A stretch of DNA of 45,559 bases, the filler included, from Catajapyx aquilonaris (lineage: Eukaryota), in NCBI GenBank assembly GCA_000934665.2. It is 2 parts of 2 records of this genome, joined end to end, with 100 filler letters (N's around TTAATTAATTAA, not from the genome) between each part and the next. Parts side by side here need not be neighbours in the genome. Positions count along the whole stretch, not along the records: positions 22,821 to 45,559 come from JYFJ02005824.1; 1 more part is not named here. One strand, given 5' to 3'. The notes under the pieces were generated by a model that saw only the letters and a program-made list of their open reading frames with translations, made no database searches and was not told where the DNA came from. The stretch's first letter is position 1, and each line of letters starts with the position of its first letter. Below are positions 24,114-27,842 of the stretch, piece by piece. A program made the translations under genes and the position numbers.

Positions 24114-27100
24114 CTAGACGATGAGAGGGTAAAGATCACCTGCGAGAAGACCAAGTCTTACACTTTGAGATAATTCGGTATCATTTGCAGATATCCTTCC
24201 AGATTCCATGCTGAAATCCTTCAGGAGGAGGGAGATCGACTTGTGGCCATCAAAGCTGGCCAACTCTCCAGGGGTCATTTCATATTCGTCCTTCCTCCTA
24301 GGATCCGCCCCACTTTTCAGGAGGATGAGGGCTGTGGACTGATGGCCACTCTTTGCAGCACAGTGCAGAGGGGTCAGACCATGCCGATTCTCTATGTCCA
24401 CCTCCATCCCCTTGTCTAGGAGGAAGCTGACCACTTCGGTGTGACCACTCGCAGAAGCCAGATGGATGCCACTCATTCCAAACTCATCCACCGTCCCCAG
24501 TATGTCAACTCCCATCACATCAACCCACTCCTCAACCTCCGAGAGGACACCTGTCTTGCAGGCAAAAAGGTATTGTTTTGGATGAGATTGAATCTGAAAA
24601 GAAAAAAACGTAATTAATAGGACATAATGGGGAATAAGTGGCCTTCATTTTGGAAACTACATAATAAATTCGCCCACATTTTTTGGATTTTTTTGGCATA
24701 TTCCGTTTCAAGATATCAGTTTCAGTTCCGGAGTAATTGGGGTTTTTATGTAGGCTAATGGTGACGTCACTGTTTGCCTGGAAAATGTTGACGTCACGCG
24801 AAGTGAAATGAACGCAAAAATGGTGTTACAGAACGCGCCCCGTCATTGTTGTAAAATGCTTCGCTGTTGTTAGCAACCGTCCCATTCCGTGAGCAAGATA
24901 GCGGCCGGGGCGCGTATTTATTCCAGGCCGCTCAAGCCGCTTTGTACATGGCAGTGATGCCACCAGGTCGGAATTATCTGTCACCCGAATTCGGCACATG
25001 AAGGCCCCCCTTCTCCACCTCGATGGCCTACAGCCGCCTTTCGAATGCTTTCCGTCGTGTCCGCGGTTAATTCAAAGTCAAATTCCTCATACCTCGCAGT
25101 CAACCAGGCATTTCAGTGTACCCNTATTTATTCCAGGCCGCTCAAGTCGCTCCTGTGCTGACAGTGGTGCCAACTGGTAGGAATTATCTGTCACCCGAAT
25201 TCGGCACATGAAGACCCTTCTCCACCTCGATGGCCTACAGCCGCCTTTCGAATGCTTTCCGTCGTGTCCGCGGTTAATTCAAAGTCAAATTCCTCATACC
25301 TCGCAGTCAACCAGGCATTTCAGTGTACCCTTTCGATTGGCACCACCCGGCCGCTCCATTTTTCCCGCCAATTTTGAAGGCACTTTTTAATGTGCCGTAA
25401 TTTATCCAGTAATGTCATTTTGATGCAACAAAGTGATGAAATGTATGTTTACAGGCCTGGGCTAGCTAGTTATGAACAAAAAACCCAAATCCCAGACCAA
25501 GGCTATTTCCCCATTATGTGTGTATGCTGTCAGATATGATCCGTGAGGATGTATGAGTACCATGTTTGTGTTGGCCACACCCGTCCCTTTCCGACTTCAC
25601 CTTTTGGCCTCACAGCGAGTGTCTGTGACACAAACTACTGTAATTTTTTTTACCAATATCTCATTTTAGGGGCTAATAAACAGCACAATACCATTCCCAC
25701 CTGTCTCTTCCTGTCCAGAGAGTACTGGACTTGTTGTTCCATGTAATAAGCGGACACTCTTGAGGACGGATCAGGTGTCAACATCTTTTGAATGAGCCGA
25801 GTTTCATCTGCATTCTTGCTCGTAAAGTCGTCTGTAAATGGGTCTCCACTCCTGAGCGAGGTGAAGGCTTGTGTCCTCCCATCCTTGTCCCCTCCGAATG
25901 GGGCCAGCATCTCGTAGAGTACCAGACCCATGGAGAAGACGTCACTCTTCTGACCGTACTCTCTCCCGCTGATCTGTTCGGGAGAGGAGTACAGATGTGT
26001 CCCAATACCCACAGTCATCTCTAGTGGTGAAGAAAGAGGAAGAGAGGAGACTTCTCGTTGGGATGGTCGTATGGGGGGGGAGGGGTGACCATGACCTGGA
26101 TGGTGGGAGGTGGAAGGAGGAGGAAGAGGAGGATGGGTGAAGAGGGAGGTGGAGAGACCGAAGTCACCAATCTTCACACTCTTTCCATCCAGGGAAAACA
26201 GGATGTTGTGTGGTTTCAGATCCCGGTGGATCAGCCTCTGGGAGTGGAGGTAGGACACTGCGGTCATCGCCTGGTGGAAGTAGGTCAGGCAGATGAACTT
26301 GGCAAGCTTTTGACCCTTGTCCAACTTGTGTCCCAGAGTTTCCTCCCTGCACAACTCCAGCTGCATGAAGAGCAAAGATGTGGTTGGACCAGTGACAGGG
26401 ATAGGAGCTGCGAAGTACTCGGTGGCCCTTTTCGACGCCTCCTGACCTTGCGGGGTTGACCTGTCGTAGGTCATGAGAGCAGCGTCGATCTCCTTTTCGG
26501 CCCAACAAGGAGGATGCTCCTCCCAAGTGCTGTAGAGCTTGATGATGTTTTCGTGGTTCAATATTGAAAGCAAGCGAACTTCCCTGAGGATGACCTCTCT
26601 CTGCTGCTGCTCTGCAGGCAGCCTGACCTTCTTGACTGCGAACATTAGTGGGGTCAGCTTGAGCTTTGCCTTGATCACATGTCCGAATCCACCGTGACCC
26701 AGCCGTGATTCCGTTTCAAAAGTAGACAAGTACTGAGACACGAAATGATTTTCACTTCCGGAGACAGCAACATTCTCTTCAGTCCTGGTAAAATAAAACA
26801 CTCATAAGAACAACATTGAACATGATCGAAAATTACAAAACAAGTCTTACATGATGCGACGGGTTGACGTCTCCAAATGCTTCATCAGGTAGTTATAAAC
26901 TCTAGTGTGTCCCTTCAGGTTGGCCACACACGCAGGGGTCTTTCCTTCCCCATTGGTCGGCTGAGGATCAGCTTTGTTCTGCAGAAGAAACATGACCACC
27001 TCCAAGTGCCCTCCTAAAGCTGCAAGGTGGAGAGGAGTGTCCATTGACTTGGTCTTGATGTCCACCTCTGCCCCCTTGTCCAGCAACAGTCTGCAGGTGT

Positions 27101-27842
27101 CCAGATGACCCCACCTGGCAGCCAGATGGAGGGCAGCCCTTCCCTCAGAGTCCTTCGTCCCAAATTGGCATGATGGCCAGTCGATCAGCACCTTGCACAC
27201 TCCGACCTTCCCTGCCCTGGAGGCCACCATCAGGGGAGTCTCTCTCCGGTCGTTGCGACAGTTCACGTCAGTTCCTCCTTCCAGGAGCTTCCTCACTTCC
27301 TCCCCTCCTCCGATGGCTGACATTATGTGGAGGTCATCAGATACGTCCATCAGGAATTTTGCCATCGCGTTGTGGTCATATTTGGCAGCAATAAACTCTG
27401 GGGTTTTCCCCTCCCCATTAGTGACCTTCACATCCGCCCCCCACTCCAGAAGCACCCTCCCAGCCTCCCTCTGTCCTTTCCAGGCTGCCTTGTGCAGTGG
27501 AGTGTCCCCAGTTTTGGTCTTTGAGTCCACCACTGCCCCATTTTCCAGGAGCAGCCTGCACACTTCCATTGACCCAAAGGCAGCCGCCTCGTGAAGCGCA
27601 GTCTTCTCCTCCCTTGAGTCCACTGCGTTGACCGATGCCCCGAATCTGACAAGCTCTATGCACACTCGAGCCCATCCACCTCGACAGGCCAAAATGAGAG
27701 GCGTGGCCCCACTCCTCGTGCGGACGTCCACATGAAATGCCTTTTTCTGCAAACTCGCCCGGACCATACTCTCAGACCCTTTGGCTGCATACTGATGCAG
27801 GCAGGTCACGGTTCCCTCATCCTCCAAGTTCACTTCCGCCAT
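24114..27842 (-). CDS. Ankyrin-repeat / eIF2alpha-kinase-like (PERK-type) / ankyrin-repeat protein, ~851 aa; exons 27842-26851, 26784-25701, 24593-24114
   Basis: TPLH/ALH ankyrin repeats in exons 1 and 3. The exon 2 kinase has LGHGGFG, FAVKK, LREV, WEEHPPCW plus insert, LFMQLELC, IHRDLKPHN, KIGDFGL, TVGIGTHLYSSPEQ and DVFSMG. Phase-consistent GT-AG introns (66 bp; 1107 bp). Inr-like TCAGTC at 27951-27946 (-). Confidence 0.85.
24623..25518. mobile_element. Composite non-autonomous DNA element in intron 2 of the ankyrin-kinase gene
   Basis: Termini CATAATGGGGAA...TTCCCCATTATG. The left part is repeated at 22821-23070, and 25357-25407 matches (inverted) a repeat at 39365 and 40942. No TSD found. 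Confidence 0.55.

Follow-up and report, generated by a model that had tools for sequence, protein, structure and literature searches.

A predicted ankyrin-flanked kinase of the eIF2α-kinase family in Catajapyx aquilonaris with replaced dimer contacts and an altered αG helix

Animals are held to have four eIF2α kinases, told apart by their sensor domains, and to our knowledge no cytosolic antiviral kinase of the PKR type is known from invertebrates. A locus on the minus strand of the Catajapyx aquilonaris genome (assembly GCA_000934665.2, record JYFJ02005824.1), in which a kinase exon lies between two ankyrin exons, raises the question of whether these exons form a single gene and, if so, whether the encoded kinase is switched on and docks its substrate like a canonical eIF2α kinase. 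We analysed a stretch of 45,559 nucleotides around this locus (hereafter the window), which joins parts of two records that need not be neighbours in the genome, positions 22,821 to 45,559 coming from JYFJ02005824.1; all coordinates count along the window. Our preferred reading, to which we assign a probability of roughly 0.6, is that the locus is an intact, spliced animal gene predicted to encode a soluble protein of ~850 residues, with 10 ankyrin repeats, a competent kinase domain nearest to PERK, three to four further ankyrin repeats and possibly a CKFS tail, and that this kinase would be controlled by its ankyrin repeats and activated in a non-canonical manner.

Three stop-free open reading frames (ORFs) are found on the minus strand at 26847–27863, 25650–26801 and 24114–24644. 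From an ATG at 27842 to a TAG at 24116–24114, exon 1 (27842–26851), exon 2 (26784–25701) and exon 3 (24593–24114) join in phase, and scripted joining of the three gives 2556 nt, corresponding to 851 codons with no internal stop. Exon 1 begins with the start codon (27842–27840), covers residues 1–330 together with two bases of codon 331, and is followed by the donor GT at 26850–26849 (CAT/GTAAGA, after 26851). Intron 1 (26785–26850, 66 nt, phase 2) runs from GTAAGA to the acceptor ttttaccAG before 26784, and has a GC content of 0.29, in contrast to the GC content at third codon positions of exons 1, 2 and 3 (0.645, 0.609 and 0.535, respectively). Exon 2 encodes 361 residues and contains a complete kinase domain of the eIF2α-kinase family on a single exon; its donor (CAG/GTGGGA, after 25701) opens intron 2 (24594–25700, 1107 nt, phase 0), which closes with the acceptor ttttcAG before 24593. 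Exon 3 carries the second ankyrin array and a 40-residue tail. The GT/AG borders and the 851 open codons agree with an earlier reading made from the sequence alone (the sequence-only reading), which had proposed that three ORFs splice in phase into a protein of ~851 residues.

The frame of exon 1 meets a TAA right at its donor site. Translation of an unspliced mRNA would therefore stop after the ankyrin repeats, and translation through exon 1, intron 1 and exon 2 would encounter two stops, a TAA and a TGA, within the intron. The TAA at the donor speaks for a different arrangement, in which a 331-residue ankyrin-only gene ends there, the remaining exons are fragments of something else, and the chimera is an artefact of reading. 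Several features of the locus make this arrangement very improbable. Within the kinase ORF, the earliest Met comes only after the glycine loop, and therefore the kinase exon needs an upstream coding exon; likewise, the exon 3 ORF contains no Met before its first repeat and needs an upstream coding exon of its own. In addition, exon 1 and the kinase ORF are only 66 nt apart, in phase, and are separated by a consensus intron running from GTAAGA to a pyrimidine tract and AG. No second copy of the ankyrin or kinase domain was found elsewhere in the window. We therefore take the three-exon gene, with its ankyrin–kinase–ankyrin layout, to be real, its splicing being strongly inferred from these borders.

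The ankyrin assignment of the flanking exons is clear. Pfam detects ankyrin families in exon 1 (Ank_2, E = 1.6e-56) and in exon 3 (Ank_4, E = 7.6e-20; Ank_2, E = 4.4e-17), and Pkinase in exon 2 (E = 1.3e-47). Modelled by itself with AlphaFold2, exon 1 forms 20 helices, with a mean predicted local distance difference test score (pLDDT) of 77, and therefore corresponds to 10 ankyrin repeats, one more than the nine or so counted in the sequence-only reading, whose estimate of three to four C-terminal repeats did stand: in exon 3, three repeat cores are clear and a further repeat is degenerate. Compared with the PDB, the ankyrin exon matches only ankyrin proteins of a generic kind and DARPins; its best 60 matches do not include RNase L. 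The highest 19-residue Kyte–Doolittle mean is 1.39, in a helix of an ankyrin repeat, and the protein begins with an acidic N-terminus; it is thus predicted to have neither a transmembrane segment nor a signal peptide, as had been proposed previously.

We next turn to the kinase domain. In a phmmer search of the PDB with the kinase exon, PERK scores highest (169.9 bits, E = 7.2e-49), followed by PKR (126.2 bits), GCN2 (124.3 bits) and HRI (119.5 bits). PERK, PKR, GCN2 and HRI account for the top 19 distinct sequences (110–170 bits), whereas the best other kinase, a CDPK, reaches 91.2 bits, and this gap in score places the kinase within the eIF2α-kinase family. Structural comparison gives the same answer. 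A model of the kinase computed with AlphaFold2 from a 43-row alignment (hereafter A1; pLDDT 85.9, predicted template modelling score 0.83) matches mouse PERK best in Foldseek (3qd2, E = 7.8e-23, TMt 0.89), followed by PKR and GCN2; ranks 1–21 are all occupied by PERK, PKR or GCN2, and DAPK appears only at rank 31, behind every eIF2α kinase. The kinase domain thus belongs to the eIF2α-kinase family, with PERK as its best match by both sequence and fold, and the earlier suggestion that it is most PERK-like holds.

Conservation within the family was assessed in a MAFFT alignment with 65 comparators, hand-picked from 371 fetched proteins and comprising 22 named PERK, 12 PKR/PKZ, 4 HRI, 8 GCN2 (Pfam-confirmed) and 19 unnamed sequences; a 66th chosen comparator, P0285, was left out owing to its short coverage. 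The window kinase keeps the catalytic Lys, the αC Glu, HRD and DFG. The catalytic Lys (FAVKK, residue 51 of the kinase exon, codon 26631–26633) occupies a column that is K in 65/65 comparators, and HRD (residues 186–188, 26220–26228) and DFG (residues 207–209, 26157–26165) fall in columns that are invariant in A1. The family hallmarks are likewise present. An insert of ~45 residues separates β4 from β5 (W87 to L137), and the motif LLFMQLEL, of the LFxQxE type, shares its L, F/Y and Q columns with 63, 61 and 61 of the comparators, respectively. The GTxLYxSPEQ motif is retained as GTHLYSSPEQ. Both activation-loop threonines are kept in the stretch TVGIGT (25998–26015), at columns corresponding to human PKR T446 (T in 62, S in 3 of the 65) and T451 (T in 61, S in 4). 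The alignment therefore bears out what had been read from the bare sequence, namely intact K/E/HRD/DFG residues and eIF2α-kinase hallmarks in the insert and in two motifs, which read LFMQLELC and GTHLYSSPEQ here. On these grounds the domain is predicted to be a catalytically competent Ser/Thr kinase.

The activation loop also contains a low-complexity insert of ~40 residues rich in Pro, Ser and His (residues 212–252, 26030–26150, minus strand), with PxxP-like runs. This insert is predicted by AlphaFold2 to be disordered and is longer than the corresponding loops of the aligned PERK, PKR, GCN2 and HRI sequences.

An intact frame may still belong to a gene that has lost its function, and the locus could be a paralogue, from a family that expanded recently, that is silent or in decay. 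Such a fate would fit its very long branch, the lack of a close transcript-derived protein match, and the repeats and inverted-repeat pair around exon 3. Against it, 851 codons are open over three exons with good splice sites. Moreover, of the 55 columns conserved at 88% or more among the remaining 42 rows of A1, the window kinase keeps 45, all catalytic positions included, despite a branch of 1.8–2.2 changes per column. Retention of these columns over such a distance, which is unexpected without selection on catalysis, argues for continued selection on catalysis in the window kinase. Decay of the gene is hence improbable, and an intact gene remains our preferred reading.

The position of the kinase within the family is less stable, because the window kinase is itself a long branch. 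It always falls outside the canonical PERK clade (support 96–100). With all rows included, it joins the long row P0258 (Shimodaira–Hasegawa-like approximate likelihood ratio test (SH-aLRT) 90), a join flagged as one between long branches; upon removal of P0258, it joins a group of ~362-residue metagenome proteins (support 53); and upon removal of four other long rows, it becomes sister to the whole PERK clade (SH-aLRT 82) within a PERK and PKR group (95). In approximately unbiased (AU) tests, joining the PERK clade was not rejected (p = 0.543), nor was joining the malacostracan PERKs (p = 0.488), a group named post hoc from the tree. These trees were built with no outgroup from other kinases and cannot alone show family membership, for which the gap in score of the PDB search above speaks.

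The departures of the window kinase from conserved columns do not fall at random, and they include residues through which canonical family members dimerize and dock eIF2α. Helix α0 of the window kinase contains the stretch QYLST (26721–26735), in which Gln and Thr occupy the columns of the PKR R262/D266 salt bridge. The R262 column is R in 59/65 comparators and Q here, and the D266 column is D or E in 61/65 and T here. The hydrogen-bond triad is replaced as well: the D289 column (D in 61/65) holds T, the Y293 column (Y in 64/65) holds F, and the Y323 column (Y in 61/65) holds L. All five of the five conserved N-lobe contacts of the back-to-back dimer are thus replaced in the window kinase. According to Rothenburg et al. 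2008 (PMC2291453), the salt bridge is important for PKR, GCN2 and PERK.

A comparable change is observed at the start of helix αG, which reads GGDK (25884–25895). Its second Gly (25892–25890) falls in the column of PKR Thr487, which is T in 62 and S in the other 3 of the 65 comparators. The Glu490 column (E in 62/65) holds Asp, the Phe489/Met column holds Lys, and one residue is inserted; in A1 the two substitutions appear as T298G and E301D. The alignment of this helix is supported by MAFFT and by pairwise HMMER comparison with PERK chains, and in pairwise HMMER comparison with human PKR chains the gap is placed otherwise while the Gly still lies opposite Thr487. Among the contacts with eIF2α, only T/S451, T/S487 and E490 are described as highly conserved in PMC2291453, and a deep mutational scan of PKR lists Thr487 among few highly constrained sites (PMC11556786). 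Canonical activation and eIF2α docking are therefore doubtful for the window kinase, and phosphorylation of eIF2α by it is unproven and, judged from these residues, somewhat less likely. The sequence-only reading had pictured ankyrins in place of the ER sensor on a PERK-like kinase that possibly still shuts off translation; this picture is not supported in that form, since the kinase falls outside the canonical PERK clade in the trees, on a long branch, and has lost the dimer contacts and the Thr487 residue.

The same residues bear on an eIF2α kinase of a fifth type, in which the ankyrin arrays would sense a cytosolic stress or pathogen cue and the kinase would phosphorylate Ser51 and shut off translation. 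All of the best sequence and fold matches are eIF2α kinases; the kinase retains the insert, both threonines of the activation loop and the LFxQxE motif, the replacement in the Glu490 column is a conservative Asp, and helix αG is still predicted. Exchange of sensors on an eIF2α kinase is also known from PKR and PKZ, as described in PMC7137213. By contrast, a Gly stands in a column that is T or S in 65/65 comparators and that tolerates mutation poorly in PKR (PMC11556786), and five of five conserved dimer contacts are changed together. With both sides considered, a fifth-type eIF2α kinase in this full sense is rather unlikely, while eIF2α as the substrate, taken by itself, is a tentative possibility whose chance we place clearly below even.

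The protein may also have a C-terminus other than that of the 851-codon frame. A candidate alternative donor (AGT/GTAAGA, phase 0) lies in exon 3 after 24162, at 24160–24161, and ~930 nt downstream of it a candidate 42-nt last exon (23231–23190, minus strand) follows a pyrimidine-rich tract and the acceptor cccaacAG (23233–23232). This exon would encode IDLNPRKSFCKFS-stop, giving a protein of 849 residues that ends in CKFS, a loose CaaX-like box preceded by basic residues. A word-level look-up found no sequence similar to the candidate exon in other DNA stretches. We regard its use as close to, yet short of, an even bet. A CaaX tail in the annotated 851-codon frame was considered and rejected, as that frame ends in ...YPLIV.

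Two repeats were observed in and around this part of the locus. Inside intron 2, a 207-bp unit is duplicated in tandem (24915–25331, 92% matches, Tandem Repeats Finder), with a single N at 25124. A 254-bp inverted repeat of 95% identity was detected by blastn self-comparison, with one arm (24624–24877) in intron 2 just upstream of the exon 3 acceptor and the other (22821–23069) abutting the N run 22777–22820, so that the pair brackets exon 3 and the candidate micro-exon. The arms may be a small interspersed element present twice, or the repeat may stem from a rearrangement or from the assembly.

Several observations weigh against our preferred reading of an intact gene with ankyrin-controlled, non-canonical activation. 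Splicing, expression and selection at the kinase locus are all inferred. The salt bridge is missing from 11 of 31 working PKR/PKZ genes, and the majority of eIF2α contacts go to the main chain, both as given in PMC2291453, and therefore the losses described above do not prove altered activation or an altered substrate. AlphaFold2 still predicts helix αG at residues 300–311 with pLDDT >90, and the tree position of the window kinase shifts with other long branches, namely P0258 and the ~362-residue metagenome group. As for the tail, the scan of 3.6 kb contains 9 C-x-x-x-stop frames, so that the CKFS micro-exon could have arisen by chance. Neither stop is followed by a canonical poly(A) signal; there are variants only, at +23 and +39 for the candidate exon.

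Under our preferred reading, a PERK-type kinase core would have been set between ankyrin exons, and control would have passed from the luminal domain and the N-lobe dimer to the ankyrin arrays, such that the kinase would no longer be switched by back-to-back dimerization, as PKR, PERK and GCN2 canonically are. The ankyrin arrays may bind a partner, either a protein or another ligand, and should the CKFS tail be real, this may take place at a membrane. Activation would then proceed via phosphorylation of the retained activation-loop threonines, and the kinase would act either on eIF2α, with altered docking, or on a novel substrate.

The predicted protein can be compared with several known systems. 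PERK shares with the window kinase the SxYLxxFE N-terminal helix, the motifs LFxQxE and GTxLYxSPEQ, the kinase insert and a long activation loop that carries the two threonines. Unlike PERK, the window protein lacks a signal peptide, a luminal domain and a membrane segment and has ankyrin arrays on both sides of its kinase; in Pfam, only Ank families precede the kinase. The αG sequence is STQME in PERK and GGDKD in the window kinase, and the PERK dimer contacts are replaced. PKR and PKZ resemble the window protein in being cytosolic, fast-evolving kinases of the eIF2α family, many of them without the salt bridge (PMC2291453). The two differ from each other by a swapped sensor module, dsRNA-binding in PKR and Z-alpha in PKZ, according to PMC7137213, and Pfam analysis of fish proteins agrees. 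By comparison with the window protein, however, the sensors of PKR bind nucleic acid and are N-terminal only, and PKR keeps T/S487 and E490 (PMC2291453; 12/12 PKR rows of our alignment), whereas the window kinase has kept neither.

RNase L likewise combines an N-terminal ankyrin array with a kinase fold and acts as a cytosolic innate-immune sensor. It consists of an IRE1-type pseudokinase with a KEN nuclease, whereas the window protein has all catalytic residues, is of the eIF2α-kinase type and carries a second ankyrin array; Pfam found no KEN/Ribonuc_2-5A family in the window protein, and in the PDB search the kinase exon matches eIF2α kinases rather than IRE1 or RNase L, the latter being absent from its best 60 matches. 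Other known ankyrin-plus-kinase proteins are ILK, TNNI3K, RIPK4/ANKK1 and DAPK1, which are of the TKL or CAMK/DAPK type. None of them occurs among the best 60 sequence matches of the kinase exon, and by this comparison the window kinase is predicted to lie outside the ankyrin kinases of those types.

Searches for the same layout in other proteins were negative. Among the best 150 of 324 representatives at E ≤ 1e-30, no relative of the kinase exon with ankyrin was found, and the closest single-domain matches are PERKs with 35–44% identity. Pfam analysis of the 20 top representatives revealed multi-kinase fusions with dsRBD or Z-alpha domains, and ankyrin in none of the 20. No ankyrin Pfam family occurs among the 240 matches listed in the longer and near length classes, and blastp with both ankyrin exons matched 0 of the 371 fetched kinase relatives (E ≤ 0.01). 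The ESM Atlas returned generic kinase clusters only, none with Ank. No close relatives were found in metagenome contigs or in viral contigs, and a profile scan gave 79 loci, which are generic kinases of 22–32% identity. The protein search with the kinase gave no close transcript-derived protein. The literature search, which did not extend to subscription journals, found no paper on a protein with ankyrin and an eIF2α-kinase domain, and in an evolutionary survey of EIF2AKs the word ankyrin does not occur, and EIF2AK2 is recorded from chordates only (PMC5851622). The sequence-only reading, which held that the ankyrin–eIF2α-kinase–ankyrin layout is unlike known ones, is thus upheld within this coverage. 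The exon of a neighbouring twinfilin gene reaches a best identity of 57%, to tick, springtails, thrips and unnamed records; the organism has no close relative in the protein collection, and missing orthologues of the kinase therefore say little.

Other features of the window are of a more ordinary kind. The next gene downstream of the kinase, likewise on the minus strand, belongs to the calreticulin family (21553–22764, Pfam E = 1e-37) and was considered as a bound on the 3′ end of the kinase gene. It has exons for the P-domain and the acidic C-terminus and a short upstream exon that adjoins the N runs 22721–22764 and 22777–22820. No N-domain exons of this gene were found in the window, and no KDEL-type signal stands at the end of its frame. 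On the other side of the kinase gene, upstream and also on the minus strand, are two protein-like ORFs with no Pfam match (28846–29328, 160 residues; 29813–30181, 122 residues), which may be separate genes or upstream exons. Two tandem genes for G-protein-coupled receptors of the Srw/rhodopsin type (39467–40791 and 42480–42869, plus strand) have nearly identical first-exon peptides, which looks like a recent local duplication, and a reverse-transcriptase ORF near the window end (43709–44662, plus strand, RVT_1, E = 6e-15) is probably the remnant of a non-LTR retroelement. The remaining neighbours are twinfilin (13675–14334, plus strand), a polypeptide GalNAc-transferase with a ricin lectin domain (33526–35772, plus strand), a BTB-BACK protein (11602–12213, minus strand) and a C2H2 zinc-finger protein (2866–3702, minus strand). 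No obvious immune-gene cluster surrounds the kinase in the window.

A bolder extension would make the locus a member of an undescribed family of the arthropod lineage, in which an eIF2α-kinase core has been freed from its ER sensor and from its dimer and docking surfaces, is gated by ankyrin repeats, may be anchored by a prenyl group and acts on a new substrate. The kinase would then sense stress or serve innate immunity, joining a fast-evolving translation-kinase core, as in PKR, to activation under ankyrin control, as in RNase L. We consider this extension distinctly unlikely in its entirety. With respect to the family as a whole, either outcome for the substrate would carry meaning. If the kinase still targets eIF2α, an ankyrin-controlled, cytosolic family of PERK type would add a branch to the integrated stress response; if it does not, the locus would provide a natural example of an eIF2α-kinase core re-targeted to another substrate.

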